Positions 22,252-63,594 of a stretch of 64,000 bases of DNA are shown one piece after another. Each line of letters starts with the position of its first letter. Position 1 is the first letter of the stretch. Source of the DNA: a bacterium (GTDB lineage: Bacteria; Electryoneota; Electryoneia; Electryoneales; Electryoneaceae). The notes under the pieces were generated by a model, which saw nothing but the letters and a program-made list of their open reading frames with translations, ran no database searches and was not told where the DNA came from. Location of the stretch: positions 1,440,001 through 1,504,000 of the forward strand of contig OY769902.1 of the NCBI GenBank assembly GCA_963669175.1, given 5' to 3'. The translations under genes and the position numbers were made by a program.

Positions 22252-22311
22252 GAAGTCAGTAGCCCGGCCATGCTTGGCCGGGGAAGGCCCGGTGCTCTCA
22301 TCCCAGCCTTC

Positions 22312-22512
22312 CAGGCTGTCGCAAAATAGGCATACTCTCATCCCAGCGAAGGCTGGGATCCAGTCATATTGCGATATTACAAGAGGTTAAGTATTCTCAA
22401 GAAACGCTGTACATTGAGAGTCGTCATAAAGTCCACCTTGTTATTATGTCGGTACATGCCTGGATCCCAGCCTTCGCTGGGATGAGAGTGTTTTCTATTC
22501 TGATAGAGTCTG
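22312..22512. mobile_element. Putative MITE with IS1182-like imperfect ends, carrying an inverted REP pair, 4-bp TSD CTTC
   Basis: Left end CAGGCTGTCGCAAAATAG and right end CTATTCTGATAGAGTCTG (13/18 complementary); CTTC on both sides; internal 29-bp IR at 22334-22362 and 22461-22489. Confidence 0.5.
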
Positions 22513-22746
22513 CTTCGCTGGGATGAGAGTGTTTTCTATTCTGATAGAGTCTGCTTCGCTGGGATGAGAGTGTTTTCTATTCTGATAGAGTCTGCTTCGC
22601 TGGGATGAGAGTGTTTTCTATTCTGATAGAGTCTGCTTCGCTGGGATGAGAGTGTTTTCTATTCTGATAGAGTCTGCTTCGCTGGGATGAGAGTATTCTC
22701 TATTCTGATAGAGTCTGCTTCGCTGGGATGAGAGTGTTTTCTATTC
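22472..22746 (+). repeat. 41-bp tandem repeat, 6 full copies plus 1 partial
   Basis: CTTCGCTGGGATGAGAGTGTTTTCTATTCTGATAGAGTCTG starting at 22472, 22513, 22554, 22595, 22636, 22677 and 22718. Confidence 0.95.
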
Positions 22747-22911
22747 GAGGACTGGCACTACACTGGTGATGACAGAATGGGACATTTTTTTCGAAATTCA
22801 CTCTATAAGTGGATAAATATCAAGCGTGTCACTAATAATCTTCTGTATATCCCGCTAAATCAACACATTAAAATCAAGCCGTTATCCTGTTCATCTTTGC
22901 TGTTATCCTCT

Positions 22912-24243
22912 TCATCCTGTAAATCCCTTGAGCAGATCCCGGAGGAATGCGGCGGTTTTGATTCCGCGCTGGTCCCAGAGCAGATCTTTCGCACGCTCAT
23001 GCGCGGCCTTCGCCATTTCAAGCTGAGTCTCATCCGAAGAGGTAACTTTTGTCAGCGCTTCTGTCAGGGCAGCGACATCTCCCGGCGGCATATACAAGGC
23101 TGCGTCTCCTGCCAGTTCGCGTACTGCCAGCAAGTCGCTGGTGATCACCGGGACAGCATGGGCGAGGTAATCGAAGAGTTTGGAGGGCGCTGTCAGGTAG
23201 CGATTATAGAACGTATCCCGCAAGGGCAGTACCGCGATGGACGCACTGTTCAACTTCTCACGCATGGCTGTATCATTCAACCAGCCGGTAATCTCGACAC
23301 GATCTCCCAGCCCAGCCGTTTCCGCCTTGCTACGAACCCCATTGATCTCAGCGTCATCACGTCCCCCGATGAACAGCAGCCGCCAGTCATCCGTCAGCTT
23401 CGCATTGTGAAACGCTTCAATCAGCAGGTCCACACCTTTCTGGCCCTGAAGGCTGCCCAGGTAGGCGATGGTTTTACGAGCAGGGCGTTGCGGATCGGGA
23501 TCACGCGCTCGGTCCAGACCGGGGTGCGCCGCAAGAATCGCCTTGCCCGGCAGGTATTCACGGTATAACGCTGCCTGCACCTCCAGCAACGGAAGATGAC
23601 CGTCGATCTTTGGCAGGCAACGCTGCTCCATCTTCTGGTATCGTTTCAAGCGCTTGCTGTTCGGGTCAATATCCTCACGCCGGGACAGGTCCATGTAAAA
23701 ATTGTGGCTGTCATGAATTGACAGCAGGTGAAGCGGTCCCTGCTTCGCATGGGTGGCGATGCTGCGCCATTTGACGAGGAAAGGCAGGGCACGAGTGTCG
23801 CGGCTCATGACCACATTGACGCCATGGGAGCGTACCAACCGTTTCAACAACCAGCCGGCGCGAGTGAAGAACACAGCACGATCCGAAGCGGGCTTCCAGT
23901 GCGGCATGGGGATGACATGGATGTGCAGGTTTTCCGGGGGGGTGATGCCATATTCCTGTTCCAGTACCGCGCGACCGTCCCCGTTGCGCCCGTCAAACCC
24001 ACGATCCGCCGATTGCACGATATAATGAACCGTAACACCCGCGTTGGCAATGGCCGTCATGAAACGTGCCCCGAACGGCCCGGCCGGAATCGCAGAGGGC
24101 CAACGGATGAAATTGACATACGCCAGCACCGGGTCGACCTGTCCCCCGGACGGTTTCGTTTCCACCTGGGGGCGAGTCAGCTCAATCGATTGAGCCTGCA
24201 TCGCGCTGCAATCACGGCAGTAGGGAGTGTTGGATGAAGCCAT
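22912..24243 (-). CDS. Glycosyltransferase family 4 protein
   Basis: YLGSLQGQKGVDLLIEAF; PSKLFDYLAHAVPVITSDL. Confidence 0.9.
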   Translation of the reverse strand: MASSNTPYCRDCSAMQAQSIELTRPQVETKPSGGQVDPVLAYVNFIRWPSAIPAGPFGARFMTAIANAGVTVHYIVQSADRGFDGRNGDGRAVLEQEYGITPPENLHIHVIPMPHWKPASDRAVFFTRAGWLLKRLVRSHGVNVVMSRDTRALPFLVKWRSIATHAKQGPLHLLSIHDSHNFYMDLSRREDIDPNSKRLKRYQKMEQRCLPKIDGHLPLLEVQAALYREYLPGKAILAAHPGLDRARDPDPQRPARKTIAYLGSLQGQKGVDLLIEAFHNAKLTDDWRLLFIGGRDDAEINGVRSKAETAGLGDRVEITGWLNDTAMREKLNSASIAVLPLRDTFYNRYLTAPSKLFDYLAHAVPVITSDLLAVRELAGDAALYMPPGDVAALTEALTKVTSSDETQLEMAKAAHERAKDLLWDQRGIKTAAFLRDLLKGFTG

Positions 24244-24362
24244 AGATAAAAGCGACCTGTTGCGTTATCGCTAAATTCGCAAGATAATAATTATAACTGC
24301 GAGGATTATACTCCTATTCTACTTGAATCTTTCCTGTCATGCGAAACTGAAGGAGTTGCCAC

Positions 24363-24716
24363 GAAAAGGGGACGGAATCCTTTTCCGCGTGTCATGCTTC
24401 ATTCGTATATGCTGCTTTTTCGGAAAAGGAAGCTGTACCCTTTTCGCAGTGATCAGGCCTGATATCATTTGTTCTTCCTGATCCCGACTTGCTCCTCAAG
24501 TGTATCACAGAAGCAGGATTGGCTCTCATCGTCTGCGTATCCAAAGTATCTACTAACTCAGATGGTGAGTCGGGCCATACGGGCGAGAGCCTGTTAGAGT
24601 TTTGATGGCAGAAAATGCAAAATCTCACTGGCAAAGGGGGACAGTCACCTTTTCGATTTCCTGCATTACATATTATCCCACACCAGCGCGACGAAAAGGA
24701 AACAGTCCCCCTTTAC
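24363..24716 (+). repeat. REP quartet (family B), copy 3, with long central spacer
   Basis: AAAAGGGGACGGAATCCTTTT, AAAAGGAAGCTGTACCCTTTT, GGGGACAGTCACCTTTT, AAAAGGAAACAGTCCCCCTTT. Confidence 0.75.
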
Positions 24717-24770
24717 TGCAAATCATTCTGAACGCTCCCTATTCTCTTAATCCTCGAGATCCCCGTTCAA

Positions 24771-24867
24771 GCCGGGGATGACATTGTAAAGCCGGGGATG
24801 ACATTGTAAAGCCGGGGATGACATTGTAAAGCCGGGGATGACATTGCAAAGCCGGGGATGACATTGT
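24771..24867 (+). repeat. 20-bp tandem repeat x5 derived from a REP half
   Basis: GCCGGGGATGACATTGTAAA at 24771, 24791, 24811, 24831 and 24851, preceded by GAGATCCCCG. Confidence 0.9.
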
Positions 24868-25033
24868 GAGGAAACAGTCCCCCTTTACGGTTGTATTCTC
24901 ACTTTATTGATACAGCCAATCCTTCCAGGAGAAAAATGATCTGGAGAGTACCGGAAACTTGTATCGAAGCCACTTTTCAGTGCATATTACAAGAGGCCAC
25001 CAATAACACCCCGCAATACCGACAGGTACTCCT

Positions 25034-28000
25034 ATGATACGGATCTCTGTGTGCCTTCTCTTGAGCATGCTGGTAATGCTGGTGTGCGCTTTCCCTGTCT
25101 ATTCCGAAACCGTTGTTGAAGGTGTCGCTTCCGGTGTCTGGGAGCCTTCCGGTAATCCGTATATCCTCAGCAGTTATACAGTCGTTGTACCACTCGATTC
25201 TACCCTGGATATCATGCCGGGTACGGAAATTCAATTTGGTGACTGTGAGTATTTCCGTGTGCTGGGTGTGATTTCCGCAACAGGTTCAGAGGAGTTCCCG
25301 GTTCAATGGGAAACCGGTACTGGTTACAATTGTTCCATCGGCCTGGCGTCTGAACCGGAAGATACAAATCGTTTTGCCAGGGTTCACTTCAGCGGGGATA
25401 GGGATTATCTAAGAATAAGTTCTACCGATGGTTGTACAATCTGGGATTCCTGCCAGTTCAATTTGAATCACAAGAACCTGATACTAAATGTTCAGAGTGA
25501 TTGGATCATGGATAACAACCTGTGGTTCAATACAGCAATTACACTGGAAATGTCCTCCGGGATTCTGCGGTTTACTAACGACAGGATGGAGGGAGAGGGG
25601 AGTGTGGTTGCCTATGTAAGTGCTGATAATATTCTTATTCAGAACAGTAGTTTCATGAATTCTGAATTGTATTTGGACGCTACATATCTGGAACTGGATA
25701 ACAATGAATTGGGGGTTTGTCTAGTGGAAGGAGGAGCTTATGTCACAGTCAATGACAATGATCTTGAGATGCTGCAGATAGAAAGTTCAAATCATGTAAC
25801 TGTATCGGAAAATCATTTCCGGAAGAATATGAACTATGGCTATAATGGTTATCAGTTCCTCTGTGAGGCCGGGCAGGCCAGCATCTCCGGTAACCGCAAC
25901 ATAAACGATGCATGTTTCATCGAAATGTTTGTGGATTCAGAGATTGAGTACAACGAGTTTACTGCCAATGTCACCCTGTCAGATTGCCAGGCAAACTTTC
26001 ATAACAACACGCTTGTATTGCTGCATGAAAACTATACCCAACAAGACAGAGCAATCCTGACTTGTCGTGACGGAAGCCGTGCCACCATCGATAACAACAT
26101 CTTTGTCGGCGTTTCCGAGCTGCTCACTCCCTGCGCCATCGAAGTCATGGAGCAATCAGACGTAAACATCAGGAATAATTGTTTTCACCGTGTCGGTGAA
26201 CCGGTAACGGGCGATCAAGCCCATGATACGATCTTAGCTGATCCCTGTTTTGTGAATGAGGAGGCGGGGGATTACCACCTGCAGGCTCATTCGCCGTGTA
26301 TTGACGCCGGAGCCGCAGGGTACTGGGATGAGGACGCCAGTGTTGCTGATGTAGGCGCTTTTCCGTTTGACAACAGGGAAGCTCATCCACCGACTTTGGC
26401 CACAGCACGCCAGGTGCAGGCGGTGAAGGGTGAAATGGTACGGTTTACAGTGTGCGCGTCGGATGACGGCGAAACTCTCGATATCTCCTTCTCAGGTTTG
26501 CCCTGCTGGCTTTCTCCGGGTTTCGCAAGGTCCGAACTGGATGCAGTACTCGACTCGGTGATGCTGGAAGGTGTGGTCCCGACGAATGCGACCGATAGCT
26601 GGGTAGTGGTGACTATGCTTTCCGGTAACAATGAAACGAGTGTCGATTCCCTGCTTGTCCATGTCTACGAACAACGCCTGTCCGGCGAGCTATCCGGGAC
26701 TATTTCAGCTTCAGAAGCGCCCTACCTGATGGATGGAGATACATGGATAGCCGAGAATGGCAATGCTCTCTTTGAACCGGGCGTCGTGGTAGAGGTATTA
26801 GAAGATCTCAACGATCCATTGGGCATTGATATCTATGGAGATGTTGAGTTGCAGGGCATTGAGGCGGATAGTATTGTTTTCCGGAGTGCAGCATTGTTCC
26901 CGGGACGTCATGCCTGGCGAGGAATTACGCTAAGGGAAGATCCCGCTGAAATCGCTTTCCGGTATGTTGTCATTGAAGATGCAGATACTGCGTTGTCTGT
27001 GATAACCTCGCAGCGGATCAGTTTGCACGACAGCCGTTTTTCTCATTGCAGGCAGGCAGTGACAATCTGTTCGAGCGACACAAGCTATATCAGCAGAAGC
27101 GAGTTTTTCGACAATAAGAATGGGGTGATCTTCACGGAAGACAATTATCATCGCACTGCCCTAGGCTATCTGGACAGCCTGTTATTTCGTGATACCAGAA
27201 GGATTGCGGTTGATATGCCACCAGGCAGACTGTCGGACAGCCGGATTGAAGGGGGATATGGCGGTATTTGTCGGTTTCGGTCAACATCGGGCGGAGGAGA
27301 ATATCAAATTCTTAACAATTATATATCAGATTGCTATTATGGATTTCAGGACTGGTATTCAAGTACATCGATGTTTATGTTCAAAAACAATATCTTCGTA
27401 AATTGTTGCTATATAGATCTTAATGGATCTTCAGTAACCTATTATTACCTGTATAATAATACATTTTACGCACCCGAAGTGCCTCGATATTCGTATATAT
27501 CCGGTTCTTTTACGAATTCTTATTTGGTGAATAATATTCTCTATTGCACCTATCCTGCTGATCATGAGGGTAATCATACTGAGTATTCCCGTGATTATAA
27601 TCTTATCAATATGGACAATTATGCTATGTATGGAGTTGGCAACATCCATGCTGATCCCCTTTTCCATAACGCGGCGGAGGGTGATTTTCACCTGATGGAA
27701 GGCTCGCCGTGTATTGATGCTGGTGATCCTACGTTTCCGTATGATCCTGACGGCACTCGTGCGGACATCGGCGCGATTCCCTACGATCCGGACTGGGTAC
27801 AAGTGGAAGACTTACGGCCGTTGCCAACCGAAGATGATGTCTGCCCGTTGTATCCCAATCCGTTTAACGGCACCACCACCTTGAAGATCAACCTTTCCGA
27901 CATGGCGGATGTGCAGGTGCATGTGTTCAACATTCTTGGGCAGAGGGTTGGACGTTACCAGTGGGAGAGCCTGTGCGGCGGCGAACATCGTCTGCACCTG

Positions 28001-28117
28001 GATCGTCAGGGACTGGATTTTACCACGCTCGCCAGTGGAGTCTATTTCTTCCGTGTGGAATTGATGCGCGCCAAAGGAAACGAGCTGTACATGTTGAAGG
28101 CGGTGCATATCAAGTAA
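25034..28117 (+). CDS. Secreted right-handed beta-helix repeat protein with T9SS-type C-terminal domain
   Basis: Signal peptide; two beta-helix modules each ending ADP.F....GD(Y/F)HL...SPCIDAG; C-terminus YPNPFN...ASGVYF. Confidence 0.85.
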   Translation: MIRISVCLLLSMLVMLVCAFPVYSETVVEGVASGVWEPSGNPYILSSYTVVVPLDSTLDIMPGTEIQFGDCEYFRVLGVISATGSEEFPVQWETGTGYNCSIGLASEPEDTNRFARVHFSGDRDYLRISSTDGCTIWDSCQFNLNHKNLILNVQSDWIMDNNLWFNTAITLEMSSGILRFTNDRMEGEGSVVAYVSADNILIQNSSFMNSELYLDATYLELDNNELGVCLVEGGAYVTVNDNDLEMLQIESSNHVTVSENHFRKNMNYGYNGYQFLCEAGQASISGNRNINDACFIEMFVDSEIEYNEFTANVTLSDCQANFHNNTLVLLHENYTQQDRAILTCRDGSRATIDNNIFVGVSELLTPCAIEVMEQSDVNIRNNCFHRVGEPVTGDQAHDTILADPCFVNEEAGDYHLQAHSPCIDAGAAGYWDEDASVADVGAFPFDNREAHPPTLATARQVQAVKGEMVRFTVCASDDGETLDISFSGLPCWLSPGFARSELDAVLDSVMLEGVVPTNATDSWVVVTMLSGNNETSVDSLLVHVYEQRLSGELSGTISASEAPYLMDGDTWIAENGNALFEPGVVVEVLEDLNDPLGIDIYGDVELQGIEADSIVFRSAALFPGRHAWRGITLREDPAEIAFRYVVIEDADTALSVITSQRISLHDSRFSHCRQAVTICSSDTSYISRSEFFDNKNGVIFTEDNYHRTALGYLDSLLFRDTRRIAVDMPPGRLSDSRIEGGYGGICRFRSTSGGGEYQILNNYISDCYYGFQDWYSSTSMFMFKNNIFVNCCYIDLNGSSVTYYYLYNNTFYAPEVPRYSYISGSFTNSYLVNNILYCTYPADHEGNHTEYSRDYNLINMDNYAMYGVGNIHADPLFHNAAEGDFHLMEGSPCIDAGDPTFPYDPDGTRADIGAIPYDPDWVQVEDLRPLPTEDDVCPLYPNPFNGTTTLKINLSDMADVQVHVFNILGQRVGRYQWESLCGGEHRLHLDRQGLDFTTLASGVYFFRVELMRAKGNELYMLKAVHIK

Positions 28118-28122
28118 TAGCT

Positions 28123-28248
28123 GGGAAAATGGGGACTGCCACTCTTTTCGCTTGTGAATAGACCAGGGATAGTTGACCATGTTTTGCTTTTATTGAAAAA
28201 TTGGTTTTGGAAAGACCTATTGCGAAAAGGTAACGGTCCCATTTTTCG
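28123..28248. repeat. Family B REP doublet just after the stop codon
   Basis: AAAATGGGGACTGCCACTCTTTTCGC ... GCGAAAAGGTAACGGTCCCATTTT in inverted orientation. Confidence 0.6.
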
Positions 28249-28525
28249 CTTTCATATCCACTCCGCAGGGATTACCGAACACAACATAGGACCATACCGT
28301 CAGTTTGGCACGCCCCTGCAAAAGGAAGCGTCCAGATTTCAATCACTCAGTGGTTGCCCAATAGTATATACAAAAAAAAATAAGGACTAACTTATTAATA
28401 TCAATTAAAATAGACCCCGCCGGACAAGCCGCTCGGGGCCAATAGAATACAATCTTTTCGTTATGTCTTCCCAATATTCTGAGGAAACGGTTAACAAGCA
28501 TCAAGGCTTTTTATCAATAGAGATT

Positions 28526-30019
28526 TTACCTGTTCACAGAACCTGAATTCAGTTGCCCCGGGGGTGTGCCCGGACCGAGTCGCTCGGGGATAGTGAAGGA
28601 TTCAGTCAGGATTTTCTGGAAATAGCGGTAGGATGAATACAGGGGCCGCAAGCGTATGATCAGCGTGTACTCACCGGCGGGCAGAACGGTGGCGTAGTCA
28701 CCGGGAGTCGAGATGAATTCCTGCAGGTGGCGATTACGGGAGCCGTGAACCAGGGGCATAATCGTACTGGCCATGCCGGCATCACGAATCACCTCGCTGA
28801 TATGAACGATATCGCCCTTCTCATCCTGTATTTCAAATTGGACCCGTGCTTTTTCCGTGAGCACCATATTCACTTCGAGCGCATTCATGTCCGGCCGGTA
28901 AATAACCTGGGGCTTGCCACGCACATCCGTGCCGACCCACAGGTACTGCGCCCCGATTTGTTCAGCAACGAACGTACGTCCCCGCCTACGCCATATCCCG
29001 ACCCCGGTGGGGCCGGTGAATTGGCCACGGTCATTGCCCTTCTCACCCCAGACGGTCAAGAGGTTTAAATCCGGATCAAACTTCAGCAGACGGTTGTTCG
29101 CACTGTCCGATGCCGCTACACAATGATGACGGTCCAGTTCGATATGGCTGATGTAAGCCGTTGGTCCCAGCGAATCAGGCAGGGTTCCAGAAGCCAGCAG
29201 ATCACCCTCAAAAGTAAATTTCTGCAAGCGCTTCCCGCCTGAATCACAAACCACGAAGTAGGCTTTGGGACGGGTGAACGATGTCCGGTCAAAGCAGGGA
29301 TCAGCTTCACTAATAGCAGCAAGAGCGGAAGGGTGGTCGAATCCGGGGAATTCCTGCAAAAGAACGCCGGAAGTATCGAATTCGAGCACACGTCCTGACC
29401 CTGCATCGGCAACGAACAACAAGCCGTCATGGGTTACATCGATCCCACGGGGATTCACCAGTCCAACCGTCGAATCCTGTCCGAACGAAGCCTGGTACAC
29501 CAGGTCTGCATCGATATTTCTCAGCTTGACAACCCTGCGGTTTCCGCTGTCAGTGACGAACACGAGACCGTTGGGCAGGCTGGTGATATCCCACGGTGTA
29601 TCCAGCGCCTCTTCACCCGTCAAACCCACGCCATACATCCCGATGCTGGTCATGGAGCGGTTGTAAATCAGCGCGTCCATCCCGGTGTTGCAGCCGTACA
29701 CGGTCATGTTGATCAGACGTCCGCGCTTGTTGCTGTCTTCTTCGTAACCAAGGCTGGTCGCGGAAAGCCCCTGCGGGTTGCTGAATTTTGCGCGCCCGAG
29801 GGTAAGCATGGTGAGCTGGGACTGTCGTCCCTGGATCACGATGGAATGACGTTTGGTCGGATACACCCACGTAGTGTGAGTCTTCTCATAGTCGTTCGCC
29901 CCCTGACGAGGGATTTCAGTTTCATACCTGTCTTTGATCTTCCCCAGGAGAGTAATGGGGAAGAAGAGAAGGATGAAGAAAGCGAGAATGAAGCATTTTC
30001 CGTTTGCGGTGAACGTCAT
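28526..30019 (-). CDS. Secreted NHL-repeat beta-propeller protein
   Basis: Signal peptide; repeats P.(D/G)I....G.VFV.DSGN.RV; WGEKGNDRGQFTGPTGV. Confidence 0.8.
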   Translation of the reverse strand: MTFTANGKCFILAFFILLFFPITLLGKIKDRYETEIPRQGANDYEKTHTTWVYPTKRHSIVIQGRQSQLTMLTLGRAKFSNPQGLSATSLGYEEDSNKRGRLINMTVYGCNTGMDALIYNRSMTSIGMYGVGLTGEEALDTPWDITSLPNGLVFVTDSGNRRVVKLRNIDADLVYQASFGQDSTVGLVNPRGIDVTHDGLLFVADAGSGRVLEFDTSGVLLQEFPGFDHPSALAAISEADPCFDRTSFTRPKAYFVVCDSGGKRLQKFTFEGDLLASGTLPDSLGPTAYISHIELDRHHCVAASDSANNRLLKFDPDLNLLTVWGEKGNDRGQFTGPTGVGIWRRRGRTFVAEQIGAQYLWVGTDVRGKPQVIYRPDMNALEVNMVLTEKARVQFEIQDEKGDIVHISEVIRDAGMASTIMPLVHGSRNRHLQEFISTPGDYATVLPAGEYTLIIRLRPLYSSYRYFQKILTESFTIPERLGPGTPPGQLNSGSVNR

Positions 30020-44468: not shown

Positions 44469-44472
44469 CGGA

Positions 44473-45056
44473 GAAAAATGGGACTTCTACCTTTTCATCT
44501 TTATCAAATCAGGGCTTTGAATCAAGAGTTTCCGAAAAGGTAGCTGTACCAGATTGGGCTGCTCACAAGAATTTGTGCATATTATCGACGAGCACATTTC
44601 GTCAGGTCTTGACGTGATGCCTTTTTCTTGTTCTTCTCCGCAATTTCAGACACCTGTCCGACTTCACAGCTGCTATTTCGCATGATAGATCGTCATCAGG
44701 CATCACATTGTGACCTGACGACAGCGAGAGCGCTGATACCGGTGGCAGGTCACAACGCGACAATAACAGGACGAGAGGTGGTTTCAGTATCATGTGCATT
44801 CAGAAATATATTGCGAAAGCCGAAAACGGAATGTCGCGTCAAGACCTGCCACAACTTTGCCCGGATGCACAAATTCTTGTGAGGAACCCCAGATTTTTCG
44901 CCAGCTTTATTACGAGATCAGCCGGAAAATCCTGGGATAACTATCTTTTCTACTATTTGTTTACATTTTAAGGTCGGTATTCATCTGTACGACCCATCAT
45001 TAACCTTGTGTTCAAATATTGTCTCTTGCAGAAAAGTGTAGCAGTCCCGATTTCCC
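44473..45056. repeat. Family B REP quartet, copy 4 (degenerate), interrupted by a MITE
   Basis: AAAATGGGACTTCTACCTTTT, AAAAGGTAGCTGTACCAGATT|TTT, CTGGGATAACTATCTTTT, AAAAGTGTAGCAGTCCCGATTT. Confidence 0.6.
44556..44889. mobile_element. 334-bp MITE with ~25-bp terminal IRs and 6-bp TSD CAGATT
   Basis: GGGCTGCTCACAAGAATTTGTGCAT ... ATGCACAAATTCTTGTGAGGAACCC; CAGATT at 44550-44555 and 44890-44895. Confidence 0.8.
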
Positions 45057-49798: not shown

Positions 49799-50178
49799 CT
49801 TTAATTTTCAGCCAGTCAGCCACTAGATAGTCAACCCTTGGCCGGTCAGATCATCAACCCGTCAGTGGACAGTTGGCGAGAGGATAGTTTTTGTGGGTTG
49901 CATGAATATTGTTGCATGGACAGCAAAACATCGAGATCCCCGGTTGATCCCCGACTACAACATTCGGGGAGGGGGGGGATGACATGATGCGACATTCTTT
50001 CCGAGTACCACTAGCCCGAATATTTCATGAACGGAACATGGATATTCATCTTAACACAGTTCATATCAACACAATACAACTGATTCATACAGCATTTTTC
50101 AGGGGACAGTTTGCTCCGGTATCCCTTTGCGTGTCTATTCCCTGTTTCGCTGGCAAAATAGGCTGAGAATCGGCAACC

Positions 50179-50425
50179 GCCCCGGCAGGGGCAACCTGTA
50201 TTAGCCCCGGGCAGCCGCCGTCAGTTTGGCGGCTACCCGGGGAGATAATGCGCATCATATATTTACTCCGGAAGGAGTAACCTGATAATTATCAAAAGTA
50301 TACAGTGGAAATATTCAGGCAACCCGCTGCCGGGGTTGGCAAGTAGCGTACATCCTATTCCCACCGTGAGCGCCAAACAGACGGCGCTGGACGGTGGGCT
50401 AATACAGAGAACCACTGCCGTGGTT
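50179..50425. repeat. Family A' REPIN-like element
   Basis: GCCCCGGCAGGGGC..CTGTATTAGCCC..GCCGTCAGTTTGGCG mirrored by CGCCAAACAGACGGCG..GGGCTAATACAG..AACCACTGCCGTGGTT; same architecture as 62602-62903. Confidence 0.7.
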
Positions 50426-50514
50426 CTTGTACTGGCCATTCCATCAAATACCAAATTTGAAATTGCATTGGTGAAATATTCGGGCTAGTGGATAGCGAAC
50501 CTGCACTCTCATTA

Positions 50515-55662: not shown

Positions 55663-55674
55663 GCCGTCCTCTGG

Positions 55675-55942: not shown

Positions 55943-55995
55943 CAGTTATTCTATTCATGGGACAATACTTAGGCAACCTGCTATATCTTACCTGG

Positions 55996-56465: not shown

Positions 56466-56502
56466 ATATATATATATATATATATGTGTGTGTGTATGTG
56501 TG
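56466..56502. repeat. (AT)n(GT)n microsatellite in an AT-rich intergenic region
   Basis: About 10 AT units followed by GTGTGTGTGTATGTGTG. Confidence 0.85.
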
Positions 56503-56819
56503 ACTATTGCTAATCTTATAACATATTTTAACTATTATATATATTACTGTTATACAGTTGATATTTCTATATTTTTTAAAAAAAACACTTGATATCCATC
56601 GCACAGGATGAATAGTTTATATTATAGAGTATAGAGACTCTTCTAGTTGTGTATGAGAAGATCGTACGCATGCATAATTGTCTATCATTATTAAAATTAT
56701 AGATTTACAAACCTGAAACAATATGTAAAAAAACATCTTCTTTATAGATTTTATGGTCAGTATTAATTATGTTCTCATGGGGGGAACATGAATACTGACA
56801 TGTATTGAAAGGGGGCATC

Positions 56820-57314
56820 ATGCGAGCCACATCAACAACCAAAGCGTTAGTGTTACTGGCAGCCTTATTGGTGGCCACTGCGTCAGTTGCAGCGCCACCT
56901 ACGTACCATTGGGGCTACAGTATGAGTAGTTTGGGATTTAACGAAAGCGACAATCATTACATCCAGAATGCTGTATTACTTGGCGATCATTGTACTGTCA
57001 CAACTACAGTATCGGTTGCACTAGAAGGTAATCCAGACAACATTCCCACAGATGGCTTTTCTGAATATGCAAAAGCATGGTGTGGGCCATCAGTGGGAAT
57101 TCAATATGCGTCAGCGTGTGTTGATGAAACAGAAATGCGTCTGCTAACTACATCTGAGATTGATACTGATGAAAATGTTCCCGTAGCTACAAATGTAGCT
57201 TCATACCGTGTCCGATGGGAATCCAGTGACTACCCTCCGTATTATCCAACTGGCGCAGTAATGGCTTATTGGGGATTCAATATGAGTTTTGTGAATCCTT
57301 ATGGTGAACAATAA
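56820..57314 (+). CDS. Small secreted hypothetical protein
   Basis: Signal peptide MRATSTTKALVLLAALLVATASVA; SD AAGGGGG. Confidence 0.7.
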   Translation: MRATSTTKALVLLAALLVATASVAAPPTYHWGYSMSSLGFNESDNHYIQNAVLLGDHCTVTTTVSVALEGNPDNIPTDGFSEYAKAWCGPSVGIQYASACVDETEMRLLTTSEIDTDENVPVATNVASYRVRWESSDYPPYYPTGAVMAYWGFNMSFVNPYGEQ

Positions 57315-57338
57315 TAGTTAATCATTTTTCTGGCGATA

Positions 57339-57370
57339 CCAATACCCCTGTCATATGACAGGGGTATTGG
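57339..57370. promoter_or_regulatory. Perfect 32-bp palindrome between two genes, abutting the RBS
   Basis: CCAATACCCCTGTCAT|ATGACAGGGGTATTGG followed by GGGAGG-4nt-ATG; no U tract on the + strand. Confidence 0.6.
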
Positions 57371-57380
57371 GGGAGGCAAC

Positions 57381-59723
57381 ATGCGAAAAAGAGATATTGA
57401 TATACTATACACATTATGTAATATATTAATAATATTAATATTAATATCACTACATAAAATAGCACAAGCACAATGGAATACAATAGATTATGGTGTACCA
57501 GTGATGAACTCAATTGCAGTCAGCGATGAAGAAAATGATATAGTTGTTGCTATTAGGACGAAAGGTTATTGGAGATCTTATAATAGAGGTCTAGAATGGG
57601 AATTTATAAATGATAATATATTAAATGGATATACTTTATATCCAAGAGATATATGGAGTAACTCTAGTAGTATTGATACGTTAATATTAAAAAATATCAT
57701 ACATGATCGAAGTGAATTACTGATATTTACTTATACTTATACATTAGATGGAGGTGAAACTTGGGAATTTATCAATGATACGACTATTGCCAGAGCTACA
57801 TTTGACAAATGTATAATCACAAATCGTCCCGAGCCAAGCCTTTTATATTTAAGTGGTTCCAGGTTCAATCGAATGACATTACCAGATGGAGACTGGGTGA
57901 CCACGCTCGCTGATTCTTTTTCACATGAAAAGAACTTCCTTTACCAGGATCCCTTTGATGACAGCACCCTTTACTTCGGCAACTGGTTTCAACATGCGGA
58001 GGGGTATGGTTCTTTCAGTGGATTGAATGTATCAACCGATTTTGGCGCGACATGGAATATGGTAATTGATCTGTATGCGATATTCGGGGTTCAACATGCA
58101 GAAGTCAATGGTTTCTGCCATATGCCCAATGGTGACATGATTGCCCTGGTAACAGTCCGTAATTCCGGGGATAATGAATACTGGTACAATGGCAGTTTTG
58201 TGAAGAAACAACAAGGTGACACCACCTGGTACCGTACCGGTTTTGAATTACCTTATCAACACTATCCCTATGCCCTGAAAGAAGATAAAACGCTGGAGGG
58301 GCGTCTGTATACCTGGATGGATGCAGGTGGATTTGGGTTGTGGTGTTCTGATGATTATGGTGAGTCCTGGTCACGCATGCAGGGTGGATTGCCCCAATGT
58401 TATTTCCATCCCCTCGACCTTTTTCAGAACAGCTCTTCAGGCACTCTCTACCTGTTGGGTGAAGGATATGAAATCCTCGCCAGCCAGGATCATGGAGAAT
58501 CATGGTATCCAATCCCGTCACCTGATATTGGTGTCAGTGGCTGGATCAGCATTTTACCGGAGGCGGTCCATTATGTGACCCAGGGTATCAGGTGCTTTTA
58601 CCTGGATGATGTCAACTCCGGCTGGGAGGAGCTTCATTTCGCAAAACCGGAAGACAGAACCGCCATTATAGATCCGGTATGCTATGATTCCGGCGATACT
58701 TTGATTGCACCTGCATTTACCTATCCGGATATGGAAGGGTACCTAGACCTGAATTATTGCATGGCGTTGAGCTATGATGGTGGCGAAACCTGGGACTACG
58801 GTGAACGCATTTACGAGGGACGTGGATGGATGCATCATTTTCAGGATAGTTCTATAGTCCGCATGCTCACTGTTATTGCGATTGATTCCATGGCAATCAG
58901 TACAGATCTCGGGCAGACCTGGACTCACTATCCTCAACCTTCAGATGCGAATTACCTGTATCGGTTGCAGAACCGTGATTTTCTCTACGTAGCAACAGAT
59001 ACCGATGTATACAGGTTTACTTTTGCAACAGCCGAATGGGTTAACACCGGGTATTCAGGACGGGAACTTGACTTTCATGCTTTGCTCTGCCTGCATGAGG
59101 GCAGGCCGTTTATCAAGGATGAACATGCCAACCTGTGGTACTGGAACCAGGATGAAACCTGGGAATTTGTTTGTGCTTTGCCCTTTGATATGGATGGTAT
59201 GACGTTGATACCCAGTGATCCGGCAATTCTCTGCGCAGGATGCAAATCGTCCGGTGATATCTACTATTCAACCAATCTTGGTGCAAGCTGGAGCCTACTG
59301 GATGCAGCCTATCCTGACCAGTTGCTGGAATTTGTGAATTGGGTTGAAGTTCTTTATGATCCCTATCGCGACCTGGTCTGGCTTGATACCAACATCGGCC
59401 TGTTTTATATGTCGGCTGAGGAATTCAGATATCTTGAGACGCCAGTCCGCGTTCAGAATGCTGATTTTCATGAGATCAGTGTATTCCCCAACCCCAGTAA
59501 CCACATGGTTTCCATTAATTATACCATCTCACAACCGAACCATGTCGCGATTGATATCTACAATATTGAAGGGCGTTTGGTGGAACACCTCTATGATGGG
59601 TACAGAGAGCAGGGCAGGTATGCCATTTCATGGCAGGCGGATAATGTGAGCTCGGGAACCTATTTTGTTAAAGTGAACCACGCTGAAAAAACGCTGGTTC
59701 GAAAAGTAGAGATTATCAAGTGA
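57381..59723 (+). CDS. BNR/Asp-box (VPS10/sialidase-like) beta-propeller protein with T9SS-type C-terminal domain
   Basis: Repeated S.D.G.(T/S)W motifs; C-terminus FPNPSN...SSGTYFVKV...KVEIIK. Confidence 0.85.
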   Translation: MRKRDIDILYTLCNILIILILISLHKIAQAQWNTIDYGVPVMNSIAVSDEENDIVVAIRTKGYWRSYNRGLEWEFINDNILNGYTLYPRDIWSNSSSIDTLILKNIIHDRSELLIFTYTYTLDGGETWEFINDTTIARATFDKCIITNRPEPSLLYLSGSRFNRMTLPDGDWVTTLADSFSHEKNFLYQDPFDDSTLYFGNWFQHAEGYGSFSGLNVSTDFGATWNMVIDLYAIFGVQHAEVNGFCHMPNGDMIALVTVRNSGDNEYWYNGSFVKKQQGDTTWYRTGFELPYQHYPYALKEDKTLEGRLYTWMDAGGFGLWCSDDYGESWSRMQGGLPQCYFHPLDLFQNSSSGTLYLLGEGYEILASQDHGESWYPIPSPDIGVSGWISILPEAVHYVTQGIRCFYLDDVNSGWEELHFAKPEDRTAIIDPVCYDSGDTLIAPAFTYPDMEGYLDLNYCMALSYDGGETWDYGERIYEGRGWMHHFQDSSIVRMLTVIAIDSMAISTDLGQTWTHYPQPSDANYLYRLQNRDFLYVATDTDVYRFTFATAEWVNTGYSGRELDFHALLCLHEGRPFIKDEHANLWYWNQDETWEFVCALPFDMDGMTLIPSDPAILCAGCKSSGDIYYSTNLGASWSLLDAAYPDQLLEFVNWVEVLYDPYRDLVWLDTNIGLFYMSAEEFRYLETPVRVQNADFHEISVFPNPSNHMVSINYTISQPNHVAIDIYNIEGRLVEHLYDGYREQGRYAISWQADNVSSGTYFVKVNHAEKTLVRKVEIIK

Positions 59724-59818
59724 GTTCTGAAGTTGGAAAGTTACAAAGTTATTTTAGGCGAATATTGGGGATTGACCCATTGGCGTCTGTCCCTGTTTTT
59801 CGTGTACAAGGAATATAA

Positions 59819-60736
59819 TTACGGCCGGATACCATTCCGGTCGATAGCCAGTGAGGTACGTCGTCCTTCGATGCCGGGGGTGCCCAGTTCACGGCCGTCC
59901 AGTTGAAGCGTAATCCCGCCGCCGTTGCCTACCACCATGTTGAACAGGGAGTCGGCACGATACACAGCGGTTTCACCCGGCTGGAGCAAGGCTTCCTTGG
60001 GGGAGGCTTCTTTCTTGTCCATGATCACCTGGAACCAGCATTCGGACTTGGCGGTCACGGTAAGCGACAGGCGTCCCGATCCTGCAATGGACCGTGGGCG
60101 TTGGTTTGGCGCGGGTTGAGGTTGCGCCTGTTCCTGTTTCGTGGCGGGTTCTATAGCGGGTGTTGCCTCGTTCCCCTGGGCAAGGCTGTCTCCGGTTACC
60201 TGTTCAGCAGGAGTGTCGAGATCTTCAACACGAAACTCGTTTTCGACTGGTTCACTGCGCGGCATGAAAAAGATCACAGCCAGAACGGCAACGACAATTA
60301 CTACGCCCACCAGCCAGTAAACAGCAGGGGGCTTGGCCAGGTTGCCGAAGGTTTCGCCCAGGTTCACATTGGAGCCGGGTTCATCTTCAACCAGTTCACC
60401 TGACGGAATTTTCGGTGGCGGCAGTTTCTTGCGTTTTTTCTCGACACGGTCGTATTGACCACCGGTAAGATCGACTGGAACCGGGGGGATTCCGGTAATG
60501 GTGTCGTACTGGTTCAGGACTTCCTCAACATCCATGCTGAGGATTCGTGCATAAGTGCGGAGGAAGGAACGGATGTAGGGGGTGGGCAGGAATTCCCAGT
60601 CACCCTCCTCGAGTTTCTCGAGGTATTGCACGCTGATCTTGCTGCGCTCCGCGATACGTCCCAATTCCAGGTTCTGGTATTCACGGGCAGCCTTCAGCTC
60701 GTCGCAAAACTCCTTTATCCTTTTTTCCGGAGCCAT
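59819..60736 (-). CDS. rodZ: RodZ-like cytoskeleton protein (HTH, TM, DUF4115)
   Basis: ELKAARE...ISVQYLEKLEEG...YIRSFLRTYARIL; CWFQV...VGNGGGI.L.LDG. Confidence 0.85.
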   Translation of the reverse strand: MAPEKRIKEFCDELKAAREYQNLELGRIAERSKISVQYLEKLEEGDWEFLPTPYIRSFLRTYARILSMDVEEVLNQYDTITGIPPVPVDLTGGQYDRVEKKRKKLPPPKIPSGELVEDEPGSNVNLGETFGNLAKPPAVYWLVGVVIVVAVLAVIFFMPRSEPVENEFRVEDLDTPAEQVTGDSLAQGNEATPAIEPATKQEQAQPQPAPNQRPRSIAGSGRLSLTVTAKSECWFQVIMDKKEASPKEALLQPGETAVYRADSLFNMVVGNGGGITLQLDGRELGTPGIEGRRTSLAIDRNGIRP

Positions 60737-60741
60737 ATCCC

Positions 60742-61347
60742 TCAATCTGTCCTGTTAGAAGTGTACAGACGATCTGCTTCCTGCATGACCCGTGCAAGCG
60801 GCAAACCGACTACATTGAAATAGCATCCTTCTAACCGATCCACAAACATGCCAGCCCGTTCCTGGATGCCATACCCGCCCGCTTTGTCAAACGGACGGCA
60901 TTCTTGAATGTACTCACTGATTTCACGTGAATGAAGAGCACGAAAGCGAACTCTTGTTTTTTCTACTCCTTCCGTAACTCTCCACCCGGCGCCGTGTTTT
61001 TCCTCTCGAAACGCCAGCACAAACCCGGTTACAACTTCATGCCATGTCCCGGCCAAGCGAGTCAGCATGGCCTGCGCTTCCTGCTCGTTTGCCGGTTTCC
61101 CGACAGGTGTGCCGTCGATTACAACTTCGGTATCCGCTGCCAGTACGAACCCCGCGCTAACTTTTTCACAGACGACCCGGCTTTTCCGACGGGCGTTTTC
61201 CAGTACTGTCGCCTCCGGGTCACCATTGTTCAGCTCGTCCACATCGGCCGGGCAGACCTCAGGTTCGATACCGGCTTGACGTAATAACGCGAGCCTGCGT
61301 GGAGAAGCGGATGCCAGTGTCCATTTTACGTCGCGTAGTGAGGTCAC
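60742..61347 (-). CDS. maf: Maf family nucleotide pyrophosphatase
   Basis: LASASPRR, LAADTEV, GKP, DKAGGYGIQ, GCYFNVVGLPL; GTGA overlap with the upstream gene. Confidence 0.93.
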   Translation of the reverse strand: MTSLRDVKWTLASASPRRLALLRQAGIEPEVCPADVDELNNGDPEATVLENARRKSRVVCEKVSAGFVLAADTEVVIDGTPVGKPANEQEAQAMLTRLAGTWHEVVTGFVLAFREEKHGAGWRVTEGVEKTRVRFRALHSREISEYIQECRPFDKAGGYGIQERAGMFVDRLEGCYFNVVGLPLARVMQEADRLYTSNRTD

Positions 61348-62192
61348 CAGTTCCACACTCCCGCCAGTATTGCCGCCATGCCGGGCAACATCACCCATTT
61401 TACCAGTTGCTGGGTACGTCGAATATTGACCCGTTCCGGGTAAACAAACGCTCCCCCGGCGAGGAAAGCAAGGGGTAACGCGGTCAACGGCCCGGCAATT
61501 ACCAGGTACACCCAGTTCAACCACCCTGTAAAATGGGGAACAGGAATCCACGCTGCTGTAACCAGCATCACAAGGCCGGCGGTTCTCACTGTGACCCGGC
61601 TCCCCTTGATCATGGCTAATGTGTGATGTCCCGCGGCACGGTCGCCGGTTTCATCTTCGGCGTCTTTGAGCAGCTCACGTGCGAAATGAACCGGAACCGC
61701 CAATGCGAAAGGAAGCAATCCGGAGTTGATGTCTCCTGCTGCCAGCGCTCCGAAAAGGAAAGGTGCTGAAGCAATAATCGCTACGAGTCCATTCCCGACA
61801 ACCGGCCACCCCTTCGCCGCGCCGATGTACAGGTACAGCACAATCGCGGTTCCTAATGCGAATAGCAGACAGGGAATGTTGATCAGGAATGATACTACAA
61901 TTCCGACCACGATCAGGTTGAGCCCGAACAAACGCGCGAAGCCGGGAGTTAATTGTCCTGATGAAACCGGACGGTCGGGTCGGTTGATTTTGTCCTCGGT
62001 GATATCCATGCCATCATTGAGCGCGAATCCACCTGCGGCTATGGCAACGGAAGAGAATATAGCGTAGGTCAACGCTGAAGCATCTACCTGGCCCAGTTTG
62101 ATCCCCACCAGCATACCACCCAGGCTGGTACCCAATAGGGTGAATACGAGGTTTAAAGGGCGGAGTAATCTGAAAATAGAAACTATTTGCAA
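61344..62192 (-). CDS. UbiA-family prenyltransferase, DGGGP-synthase-like (start uncertain)
   Basis: RLLRPLN; NDGMDITEDKINRPDRP; RELLKDAEDETGD. Confidence 0.85.
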   Translation of the reverse strand: MQIVSIFRLLRPLNLVFTLLGTSLGGMLVGIKLGQVDASALTYAIFSSVAIAAGGFALNDGMDITEDKINRPDRPVSSGQLTPGFARLFGLNLIVVGIVVSFLINIPCLLFALGTAIVLYLYIGAAKGWPVVGNGLVAIIASAPFLFGALAAGDINSGLLPFALAVPVHFARELLKDAEDETGDRAAGHHTLAMIKGSRVTVRTAGLVMLVTAAWIPVPHFTGWLNWVYLVIAGPLTALPLAFLAGGAFVYPERVNIRRTQQLVKWVMLPGMAAILAGVWNW

Positions 62193-62364
62193 GGATATCT
62201 CAGCGTTTTTGGAAACCTGTACTTTATGAAAATACAATGAGTGTTTTGCCTGCATTAATATCGGGCTGATTTGTAACGAAATGAAAAATCAGAATAAGGA
62301 GGCAAAAAACCATAATCTGGTTCAACCTACTCTAATATTGTTATTTCAAAAGCCAAACCAGACT

Positions 62365-62495
62365 GAGATACTGGTTTCTAAGAGATACGGCGTCAAAGAG
62401 ATACTGGTGTCTATGAGATACGGTGTCAAAGAGATACAGCGTCTAAGAGATACGGTGTCAAAGAGATACAGCGTCAAAGAGATACTGGTCTCAAA
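62365..62495 (+). repeat. Degenerate 16/17-bp tandem repeat x8
   Basis: GAGATAC(T)(G/A)G(T/C)GTC(A/T)AA units. Confidence 0.9.
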
Positions 62496-62571
62496 GAGAA
62501 GCTGACTACAATAAGCTAATGGCTTTACTTAGCAGGCTTTAGCCTGCTCTTCTTAGCACCCGGCTTTAGCC

Positions 62572-62967
62572 CTGTCTCTTGCTCACATCTTCGTGTTTCT
62601 GCCACCCCAGAGGGGGTGGTATATTTTAGCGTAGGGTTGACGCTGTCTGTTTAGCGTCTACCCTACGAAAAAGATCAAACCTTATCTCAACCCTGGAAGG
62701 GTTGCATAACGTATAATTTACACCCAATTGGTTTGTATAGAATATAAAATGCGTTATTTCCTGTATTTATTGAACGTACTAATATGAATCGCGTATTATG
62801 CAACCCTTCCAGGGTTGATTATTCGTTAGAATACCTGACATAGTGTACAGGCCAAACAGACGGCCTGTACACTATGCTAAAATAGGGAATCCCGCCGGGA
62901 TTCTAAAAATGCTATGTCCACAACTCTTTTACTGATACAGCTTTCAGAAGATGTGGGTAAGAGACAG
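62572..62967. mobile_element. 396-bp MITE with IS50/Tn5-like terminal IRs and 10-bp TSD GGCTTTAGCC
   Basis: CTGTCTCTTGCTCACATCTT ... AAGATGTGGGTAAGAGACAG (18/20); TSD at 62562-62571 and 62968-62977. Confidence 0.85.
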
Positions 62968-63038
62968 GGCTTTAGCCGGGGTGGAAAAGGATGCCCACTC
63001 AGATGAGCGCGCTTTAGCGTGCTTTCCGGTTCAAGGCC

Positions 63039-63470
63039 CTACATCTGCCCGGAATTTTCCAGAATCTCTCTTAGCGTCTTTGTGCGGTGGTGTTCTTTTT
63101 GATTGTGAACATATTCTAAAATAAAATCAAGGTGTTTCTCGGCAAAACTAACCACACCAAATCCACGTTGCCACCTCAATGTGTTTTGGCCAAATCTTTT
63201 ATTTAGTGAGTGCGCTGAAGCCCCTTTCAGTTTCCCTACAAAAGTACTGATCTCAACATGTGGCTCAAGTTGTATCACAAGATGTATATGAGTCGATGTC
63301 CCACCTAATCCCTTGAAATGAACCCCCTTGTTCATTACACAATGGTCTTTAAGGAATTCAAACAAAGGTTCCTCGATTGAAGATGTGATGCATGGCTCGT
63401 CTGCCAGACAATGCCATGTGATATGGAGAAAGATGCGATTGTAAACGTGACTTTGCCCTTTATCTGACAT
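63039..63470 (-). CDS. tnpA: IS200/IS605-family Y1 (HUH) transposase
   Basis: HITW, THIHLVI (HUH), VGKLKGAS, WQRGFGVVSF, YVHNQKEHH (YxxxQ). Confidence 0.93.
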   Translation of the reverse strand: MSDKGQSHVYNRIFLHITWHCLADEPCITSSIEEPLFEFLKDHCVMNKGVHFKGLGGTSTHIHLVIQLEPHVEISTFVGKLKGASAHSLNKRFGQNTLRWQRGFGVVSFAEKHLDFILEYVHNQKEHHRTKTLREILENSGQM

Positions 63471-63594
63471 TGGGTATTCTCCCCGGAAAGCACACTAAAG
63501 CGCGCTGATTATTGTTTTCCATACCCTGACACCCCGGCTAAAGCCAGGTGCTAAAAAGAGCCTGCTGAAGCAGGCTAATCCTCCGCAAGGAGAG

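Follow-up and report, generated by a model that had tools for sequence, protein, structure and literature searches.

The 64,000-nucleotide stretch of bacterial DNA analysed here (the window; bases 1,440,001-1,504,000 of a genome that consists of a single contig of 5,447,365 bp with 50.1% G+C) carries several short, gene-less elements that are bounded by terminal inverted repeats (TIRs), lie between short target duplications, and contain hairpins of the repetitive extragenic palindrome (REP) type. An earlier note on this DNA had listed three of them, designated here E1, E2, and E3, and BLAST searches against the whole genome, which returned 128, 110, and 139 matching pieces, respectively, showed that all three are present at the positions noted and that each represents a multi-copy family with conserved boundaries and not chance inverted repeats. 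The labels E1-E4 for elements, REP-A to REP-E for hairpin families, and Y1-Y10 for Y1 transposase genes were coined for this analysis. E3 lies beside gene Y3, which encodes a Y1 HUH transposase and is itself accompanied by REP hairpins, and the features at this locus are as follows:

62531-62548, no strand: REP-A hairpin H1 (AGCAGGCTTTAGCCTGCT), the farthest from Y3 of the three hairpins on its 3' side
62559-62571, no strand: left half of REP-A hairpin H2, CCC followed by GGCTTTAGCC, these final 10 nt being the first E3 duplication copy
62572-62967, no strand: E3, 396 bp, with Tn5-like ends; three-hairpin modules at 62597-62710 and 62795-62908, inverted relative to each other, enclose an 86-nt spacer
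62968-62981, no strand: right half of REP-A hairpin H2, the second duplication copy GGCTTTAGCC followed by GGGG
63006-63023, no strand: REP-A hairpin H3 (AGCGCGCTTTAGCGTGCT), adjoining the 3' end of Y3
63039-63470, minus strand: Y3, Y1 HUH transposase gene, 143 amino acids, PF01797 at 68.4 bits, with HIH and YVHNQ motifs visible
63489-63506, 63532-63548, and 63559-63576 (within 63489-63576), no strand: mirror set of REP-A hairpins on the 5' side of Y3

Y3 is one of ten open reading frames in the genome that match the Pfam model Y1_Tnp. It scored 61 bits with the NCBIfam IS200/IS605 model NF033573 (cut-off 55) and 20.9 with REP_Tyr_transpos NF047646 (cut-off 80), and it is an IS200-type Y1 transposase by sequence and similar to a REP-associated tyrosine transposase (RAYT) by context, combining a Y1_Tnp match and HIH and tyrosine motifs with three REP-A hairpins per side in mirror order. 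The middle hairpin on its 3' side, H2 (CCCGGCTTTAGCCGGG), is cut by E3 exactly at the loop; at Y4, a paralogue of Y3, the same REP-A arrangement is uninterrupted. Only two distant relatives of the Y3 protein were found (45% and 33% identity), which gave no help in naming or context. In the NCBIfam scan, which covered Y1-Y8, genes Y1-Y4 scored above the IS200/IS605 cut-off, Y5 and Y8 above the cut-off for REP-associated tyrosine transposases, and Y6 and Y7 just below it. Most of the ten genes have a distinct flanking repeat family, Y3 and Y4 sharing REP-A and Y7 having none that we could see. The REP-C module gaaaaatggga..taccttttc ... gaaaaggta.ctgtaccagatttttc (also gaaaaatgggact..taccttttc) is found on both sides of Y5, with 110 motif matches in the genome, and the signatures of Y6, Y9, and Y10 occur 34, 10, and 95 times, respectively.

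E3 begins with CTGTCTCTTGCTCACATCTTC and ends with an imperfect inverse of it; all copies of the family start with CTGTCTCTT and end with its inverse. From left to right, the element consists of hairpins h1, h2, and h3, the 86-nt spacer, and the mirror set of hairpins, and in the window it lies between two copies of the duplication GGCTTTAGCC at 62562-62571 and 62968-62977. The genome contains 42 uninterrupted full-length copies and two that are interrupted by other elements (44 in total). Thirteen of the 42 are identical, which points to a recent burst; 29 share at least 98.7% identity and 13 fall at 88.9-92.9%. Three lineages can be distinguished (29 copies at 98.7% or more, 13 at approximately 89-93%, and one at 77%), and the cargo is common to all of them, so that it predates their divergence. 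The 10-bp duplication is perfect in 36 of the 44 copies, with one mismatch in one copy, two in three, three in three, and eight in one. Several copies with mismatched duplications have different REP-A loop variants on either side, which suggests exchange between E3 copies. The short-read runs of the sample were stored as short contigs, interrupted at each repeat, and we used the depth ratio alone: 919 for the E3 unitig versus 18.9 for the neighbouring unique contig, and 720 versus 17.2 in a second run. This corresponds to approximately 42-49 copies, matching the assembly, and the repeats are therefore not an assembly artefact. Read joints at 62571 run to other REP-A loci and reveal no empty allele, being silent on excision either way.

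The E3 duplications follow the consensus GGCTNNAGCC. A possible IS4 family/IS50 group parent would agree with the end match given below (16-17 of 19 positions), the 10-bp duplication, and the symmetric consensus, duplications of 9-12 bp at a symmetric target being usual in this group. The two E3 ends, CTGTCTCTTGCTCACATCT and CTGTCTCTTACCCACATCT, agree at 16 and 17 of 19 positions, respectively, with the 19-nt Tn5 mosaic end CTGTCTCTTATACACATCT as printed in PMC4248319. E3 differs from Tn5/IS50 in its duplication, which is 10 bp and not 9 bp as in Tn5 (PMC4248319), and in that no IS50-like transposase gene was found.

Target choice by E3 is strongly biased towards REP hairpin loops. Classified by motif, 24 of the 44 sites are REP-A hairpins, six belong to a second family, REP-B (GAATAGCGCGG...), two are three-hairpin modules, two are a GGGAAGGCTTTACCCC repeat, and ten lie elsewhere; inspection of these ten by eye assigned two to REP-E hairpins, one to a position adjoining an E4 end, and one to the interior of an E2 copy. 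Reconstituted empty sites fold at -10 kcal/mol or below in 30 of 44 cases, compared with 5% of 500 random 34-mers, and the mean folding energies are -12.3 and -4.9 kcal/mol, respectively. The earlier note had claimed that the elements are targeted to REP motifs, and for E3 these figures uphold it. Since approximately 99 two-hairpin REP-A modules remain uninterrupted, roughly a fifth of REP-A modules hold an E3 copy. The site GGCTNNAGCC occurs 223 times in the genome, versus 84 expected from composition, and readings of the preference in terms of sequence and of structure are inseparable here. The bias is probably due to a preference of the absent E3 transposase for the symmetric site GGCTNNAGCC, which the REP-A loop offers. 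Non-hairpin sites may lie inside genes, where insertions would have been lost. For Tn5, too, a tendency towards palindromic targets whose duplications have G/C at their ends has been noted (PMC1525189).

The interior of E3 is related to sequences beside other Y1 genes of the same genome. Positions 51-138 and 225-336 of the element match, by BLAST, two stretches a short way upstream of gene Y1 (78-80% identity over approximately 90-110 nt), and gene Y2 has the same three-hairpin module on both sides, in mirror order. We aligned 22 modules, to which two E3 subfamilies contributed four, the flanks of Y1 and Y2 another four, a same-genus genome two, and other copies the remaining 12, and obtained one consensus fold, in which 18 of 25 pairs show compensatory change. 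The modules share the order of the three hairpins, the linker CTATTTTAGC/CTGTATTAGC, and the conserved loop GTCTGTTT (in some rows a variant, for example GTCAGTTT or GTCTTTTT), while the stems covary. The E3 interior thus represents a REP doublet of a Y1-gene family and has the layout of a Y2 locus without its gene. A profile built from the module found 243 copies in the genome: 91 in the 44 E3 copies, 7 in E3-like remnants, 78 in 40 copies of a fourth element, E4, and 26 no more than 350 nt from an E4 end; Y1 genes account for 3, and the other 38 have no shell end nearby. Altogether, 202 of the 243 lie in or beside shells of the E3 or E4 type.

A second shell, with different ends and a different cargo, is E2, which interrupts a REP-C module in the window:

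44470-44556, no strand: left part of the REP-C module, ending with the first 8-bp duplication copy (44549-44556, CCAGATTG)
44557-44888, no strand: E2, 332 bp, with ends GGCTGCTCACAAGAATTTGTG and an imperfect inverse of it; its two long hairpins, at 44599-44721 and 44742-44852, have bases of the REP-D type
44889-44952, no strand: right part of the REP-C module, beginning with the second duplication copy (44889-44896, CCAGATTT)

The element proposed in the earlier note is real, its boundaries having been placed one base off on each side and its duplication being 8 bp long rather than 6 bp. The two window copies of the duplication, CCAGATTG and CCAGATTT, agree at seven of eight positions; among 55 full-length E2 copies, the repeat is perfect in 27, has one mismatch in 14, two in eight, and four or more in six. 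These duplications average 81% A+T, compared with approximately 50% for the genome, and the position of the window copy in REP-C is a coincidence of an AT-rich stretch there. In each E2 hairpin, a 9-bp base (G.CAGGTC / GACCTG.C) is followed by a bubble of 3 nt and then by a second stem, which varies. Beyond the E2 copies, 42 hairpins, of which 31 are short, share this design, and four of the 42 flank the RAYT gene Y8; 145 more lie inside E2 copies. The free REP-D hairpins and those of E2 have the base and the bubble in common and an upper stem that covaries. Isolated REP-D base motifs (CAGGTC with ACA or TTG) are also present in the window at 19888 and 34489, outside any E2 copy.

The pattern of a shell with REP cargo extends beyond the three elements of the earlier note to the fourth family, E4, which was found by aligning 18 module pairs with their flanks, most of the module copies outside E3 being paired. 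The window contains one copy:

50012-50487, no strand: E4, with TA-GCCCGAATATTTCA... ends and TA on both sides, 93.9% identical to the reference copy, with modules of the Y2-flank type at 50180-50275 and 50314-50431

E4 is 476-477 bp long and is represented by 40 full-length copies with 90.4-100% identity, whose ends are TAGCCCGAATATTTCA and its inverse and whose doublets have a spacer of approximately 38 nt. The first two bases are TA in 39 of the 40 copies and the last two in all 40. One copy is nested in an E3 copy (genome 847595-848464) at the TA of the h2 loop, where intact E3 provides the empty site with a single TA (gacgc-TA-aacagac), so that the TA was duplicated by the E4 insertion. 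Other nested insertions include E3 in E2 (genome 3910060-3910454), E3 in an E4-type module, and an insertion sequence (IS) of 1312 bp with a PF01609 transposase in the h3 loop of an E3 copy (genome 4494613-4496329), where it is flanked by the 9-bp duplication CCTGGAAGG. Beside gene Y2, an E4 end at approximately 5013493-5013577 of the genome (1146-1230 of locus L002) is preceded by a lone first hairpin and by the linker CTGTAT-TAGCCC. The coincidence of the E4 terminus TAGCCC with the conserved module linker hints at a common origin of terminus and module, and the E4 end at Y2 could reflect either origin or recombination.

In E2 and E3, the hairpin arms are less diverse than the terminal repeats, and in E4, the same is true of the best-kept stem windows of module A. 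For E3, nucleotide diversity was 0.021 in the hairpins, 0.079 in the other interior sequence (0.117 in the central spacer), and 0.032 in the ends (p = 0.001, Mann-Whitney), and for E2, it was 0.041 in the arms, 0.126 in loops and linkers, and 0.076 in the ends (p = 2e-12, Mann-Whitney), p-values that overstate independence, as the copies are related through subfamilies. In E4, the two best stem windows of module A reached 0.007-0.020, the other module windows 0.025-0.049, the inter-module spacer 0.131, and the windows holding the ends 0.069-0.098. The direction of the difference between hairpins and ends is the same in all three families.

The remaining element of the window, E1, is less regular:

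22295-22311, no strand: left half of a split hairpin (CTCTCATCCCAGC) with the first CTTC (22308-22311), read from the sequence as an inverted-repeat pair
22312-22512, no strand: E1 as delimited in the earlier note, 201 bp, with outer 16-nt ends CAGGCTGTCGCAAAAT / ATTCTGATAGAGTCTG and inverted-repeat arms of 49 nt that are 86% complementary
22472-22746, no strand: tandem array of 6.7 units of 41 nt (98% matches, score 536), overlapping the right end of E1

The core of E1 consists of two inverted hairpins CCCAGCGAAGGCTGGG (22342-22357 and 22466-22481; family form CTCTCATCCCAGCGAAGGCTGGGATCCAG) separated by approximately 100 nt. CTTC is found at 22308-22311 and 22513-22516, and removal of E1 would restore the perfect palindrome CTCTCATCCCAGC-CTTC-GCTGGGATGAGAG. 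The 41-nt unit of the array combines a half hairpin, a motif like the 16-nt E1 end (consensus CAGACTGTATCAGAAT), and CTTC, and varying numbers of units lie beside the core at many loci. Of 19 strict cores in the genome, nine have the outer 16-nt motif on both sides and ten lack it on one or both; among the nine, three (the window copy included) have an exact direct 4-nt repeat, two a repeat with one mismatch, and four none. Several cores without the paired motif directly abut unique DNA. The parse into ends and duplication, one of several possible, thus fits the window copy and is not a rule of the family. The half hairpins flanking E1 resemble its internal hairpin and REP-E, a family with 80 intact hairpins of the forms GTCATCCCCAGC-GCAG-GCGGGGATCT and GTCATCCCCGGC-TTGA-ACGGGGATCT. 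Copies with outer ends split the REP-E loop and have the 4-nt loop on both sides at 558643 (CTGC/CTGC), 5119335 (CTGC/CTAC), and 2068045 (GTAG/GTAG). We also considered E1 as a simple miniature inverted-repeat transposable element, or MITE, within a population of intact CTCATCCCAGC-CTTC-GCTGGGATGAG hairpins and rejected this, the intact form occurring about once; elsewhere, E1 splits hairpins of the ATCCCCAGC-GCAG-GCGGGGAT type, which also occur intact, and intact hairpins of the E1-split form lie at 403681, 830115, and 3423544. In the same-genus genome (contig C289, approximately 1330-1400), an E1-type end and hairpin (CAGACTGTATCAAAAT ... CTCATCCCAGCGAAGGCTGGGATCCAGG) adjoin a three-hairpin module, so that E1 and the modules are older than the split of the species. 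That genome is the only same-genus one, shares 69% identity even in the neighbouring gene, and has a different repeat at the spot where an orthologous empty site was looked for.

We consider these data best explained, and quite probably correctly so, by two kinds of mobile DNA that are physically nested, MITE-type shells being wrapped around REP modules. The first layer comprises at least five REP families (REP-A to REP-E) and the three-hairpin modules, of which four REP families and the modules flank single-copy Y1 HUH genes of the RAYT or IS200-like type. The second comprises gene-less elements with TIRs and fixed-length duplications, which would be moved in trans by DDE transposases: E3 with Tn5/IS4-like ends and 10 bp, E2 with 8 bp of AT-rich sequence, E4 with TA, and E1 with 4 nt. 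First-layer modules in mirror arrangement fill the interiors of the second layer, so that REP doublets would be copied at each transposition of a shell, and E3 and part of E1 in turn land in the loops of REP hairpins. The starting points of this explanation are the observed anatomy, copy numbers, duplications, target bias, cargo homology with covariation, and arm conservation. We infer DDE enzymes as the movers because such ends and fixed-length duplications are a DDE signature, and we likewise infer the gain of the cargo and a need for the hairpins in spread. IS200/IS605 elements have neither terminal inverted repeats nor larger duplications (PMC2817692).

Of the two coupled transposition chemistries suggested in the earlier note, the anatomy of E3, E2, and E4 bears out DDE-type ends around Y1-flank hairpin modules, whereas a coupling in mechanism, or action of a Y1 enzyme on the cargo, would be conjectural; no matching transposase was found for any family. 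The REP cargo proposed for each element is confirmed in E3 and E2, whose hairpins are homologous to sequences flanking Y1 genes, and is plausible for E1. All three window copies do lie inside a REP-like motif, as claimed; as a family rule, this applies to E3, at E1 it applies to part of the loci, and E2 enters AT-rich sites. Second copies proved abundant (44 of E3 and 55 of E2), and for E3 we found neither copies without REP cargo nor random insertion, the insertion of E2 not being REP-directed.

Several results weigh against the two-layer explanation. No autonomous IS with E3, E2, E4, or E1 ends was detected in the chromosome by end-pair scans and an IS survey; the IS families present (two of the IS110 type, IS3, IS630, four with PF01609 matches, and one with an uncharacterised open reading frame) have other ends. 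No full-length partner or transposase reading frame was found at the loci read in two relatives, and the single solo match to the exact E3 end pattern in metagenome contigs has no transposase beside it. A general preference of E2 for REPs was not found over its 55 copies. E2 is presumably ISL3-like (GGCT... ends, 8-bp AT-rich duplication) and E4 presumably IS630-like (TA), as judged from traits of those families. The relatedness of the copies also tempers the diversity comparison. E1 fits the scheme only in part: the 6.7-unit array to its right looks like a slippage product, a second scan found two paired copies in which GAAG faces CTTC across the element, so that the repeat is inverted and not direct, and none of the ten Y1 genes of the genome is flanked by the E1 hairpin.

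The search for partners gave further information on the distribution of the ends. Genome end-pair scans returned pairs of MITE size only, together with the two interrupted E3 copies; for E3, 41 pairs are shorter than 1 kb, all of 350-399 nt, and the two longer pairs are the interrupted copies. No transposase adjoins the solo ends in the genome, and the trace of ISL3 is limited to a decayed fragment of approximately 70 amino acids, beside which no E2 end lies. In public genome contigs, the exact end pattern of E3 had no matches. When two mismatches or fewer were allowed, it was found in 7 of 79 genomes of the phylum, this one counted, 75 times here and one to four times in each of the six others, and the reversed-pattern control gave none in any genome. 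In another genus, an E3-like end pair that apparently encloses REP-A hairpins (locus L058) was rejected as cargo, since TGCTAAAGCA occurs twice around a short one-ended piece; a truncated insertion into a loop of the REP-A type, together with a second remnant, accounts for it better, and TGCTAAAGCA on both sides of the truncated end, as read by eye, points to the same kind of target there. The autonomous IS with matching ends that the earlier note had proposed to look for was thus found neither in the chromosome, nor at the metagenome match, nor at the loci of the two relatives.

The strongest competing explanation, which we nevertheless hold to be improbable, treats the REP doublets as guests rather than passengers: ordinary palindromic MITE shells would have been entered later by doublets inserted by Y1 (RAYT) enzymes that favour palindromic or hairpin DNA. 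A precedent exists in Anabaena variabilis (GTAG-15) and Halothiobacillus neapolitanus (CGTC-1), where REP dimers are always found within long palindromes, with no free palindromes, and were read as REP insertions into palindromic targets (Di Nocera et al., 2013, PMC3733652, section 7). Moreover, two E1 copies (2620674p and 74837p) have a small hairpin with the GTCTGTTT loop inserted in an E1 hairpin, so that REP-type sequences do enter such elements. A REP-free E3 shell is missing, however, all 41 E3 end pairs below 1 kb being 350-399 nt long, and the three lineages that share the cargo place its acquisition before their divergence. Even if the doublets had entered in this way, the composite would spread as a unit regardless, and the proposal touches the origin only.

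Much less probable is a single chemistry, in which whole composites, their ends included, would be substrates of Y1 HUH enzymes, comparable to 'TIRtrons', and the flanking repeats a by-product of insertion at palindromic sites. Y1 genes flanked by inverted repeats instead of REPs have been described (PMC3733652), one E4 end lies beside Y2, adjoining a module, and the hairpins are better conserved than the ends. On the other hand, non-palindromic E3 duplications, for example CGCACAAGTC, CACTCAAGTC, and GGTTTATAGT, repeat exactly, in direct orientation and at a constant length, which fits staggered cuts and not the single-strand insertion of HUH enzymes (PMC2817692), three fixed duplication lengths (10, 8, and 2) pair with three end sequences, and none of the Y1 genes of this genome lies between a pair of such ends. 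That the interiors are merely hairpin-rich and their likeness to REPs convergent or due to chance, as bacterial MITEs often fold stably (PMC3184786), is scarcely credible in view of the 243 profile copies, the 78-80% identity to Y1 flanks over approximately 90-110 nt, the shared hairpin order, linker CTATTTTAGC/CTGTATTAGC, and loop GTCTGTTT with covarying stems, and the 9-bp base and bubble common to E2 and free REP-D.

Starting from the nested arrangement, a more far-reaching interpretation is possible, which we put forward as tentative and rather doubtful at present. REP doublets may have gained a second and faster means of spread through DDE-moved shells, for which the REP loops of other Y1 families would serve as harmless landing pads; the hairpin arms, which in three families are better conserved than the ends of the shells, would possibly be required, for example through a folding of the element that brings its ends together or through recruitment of a Y1 enzyme, and the two systems would be functionally interdependent.

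Both REP-targeting ISs and REPIN-RAYT systems are already established. REP-targeting members are known in the families IS3 (IS1397/ISKpn1), IS110 (IS621, ISPpu9, ISPa11), IS4 (ISRm22), IS256, and IS5 (Tobes and Pareja, 2006, PMC1525189). E3 resembles ISRm22 in having IS4-type ends and lying inside REP hairpins, its consensus GGCTNNAGCC being palindromic and G/C-ended as Tn5 targets are; it differs from the REP-targeting ISs in being gene-less and 396 bp long, in having no genomic partner, and in an interior made of REP material of another family, and the word MITE is absent from that paper. Like REPIN-RAYT systems, the arrangement described here combines an inverted REP pair and a spacer, seen in the interiors of E3 and E4, with the same units beside a single-copy Y1 gene and many gene-less copies (Bertels and Rainey, 2011, PMC3116915). 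Units of the cargo flank a single-copy RAYT gene for E3 and E4 (Y1 and Y2) and for E2 (Y8), and not for E1. Unlike in those systems, where dispersal proceeds without TIRs or duplications, 202 of the 243 module copies lie in or beside shells with TIRs and duplications, and only 38 have no shell end nearby. REPINs have been described as slow, vertically inherited, and RAYT-dependent, and as distinct in their dynamics from fast and short-lived MITEs (bioRxiv 10.1101/2021.07.10.451892). With classical MITEs (Correia/NEMIS, RUP, ERIC, and Nezha), the elements share small size, TIRs, duplications, many copies, and stable folds (PMC3184786, PMC2817692); TIR boundaries are conserved in E3, E2, and E4 and in 9 of 19 cores of E1, and the duplication has a fixed length in E3, E2, and E4. 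Their interiors are unusual in that classical MITEs, according to these sources, usually contain remnants of the parent IS, whereas here modules of another transposition system form the best-conserved part.

The closest precedent is the paragraph on Anabaena and Halothiobacillus in PMC3733652. The doublets bracketed by inverted repeats in these species probably have the same architecture as the elements described here; the paper gives neither target duplications nor IS-type ends for them, and no copy census or target preference, and its authors state that they did not follow the matter up. Our literature search, in which subscription journals were outside the scope, retrieved no paper in which elements with IS-type ends and duplications are described as carrying REP doublets, and none in which this is quantified. 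The composite arrangement, which the earlier note had not recognised as described, was thus not found in the literature searched, while REP-targeting ISs, including one element of the IS4 family, were already published (PMC1525189).

Should it be the shells that move, the number and distribution of REP copies in such genomes could not be taken as a record of RAYT activity, and the line between REPINs and MITEs would become blurred. A symmetric target preference that is satisfied by the REP loop also offers a concrete reason why some IS and MITE families enter REPs. The organism, whose closed genome combines ten Y1 genes with shells of four types, provides a system in which interference or cooperation between HUH and DDE transposition can be tested.

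An Rfam scan of the whole window gave no family at the gathering score. Y3 and its REP-A hairpins are bracketed by tandem arrays at 62365-62499 and 63595-63841 (16/32-nt and 43-nt periods), and tandem arrays likewise adjoin the REP modules at the Y1, Y4, and Y10 loci. A further tandem repeat of the window, at 24769-24867, consists of 4.9 units of 20 nt (AAGCCGGGGATGACATTGTA), each unit including one arm of the REP-E hairpin.

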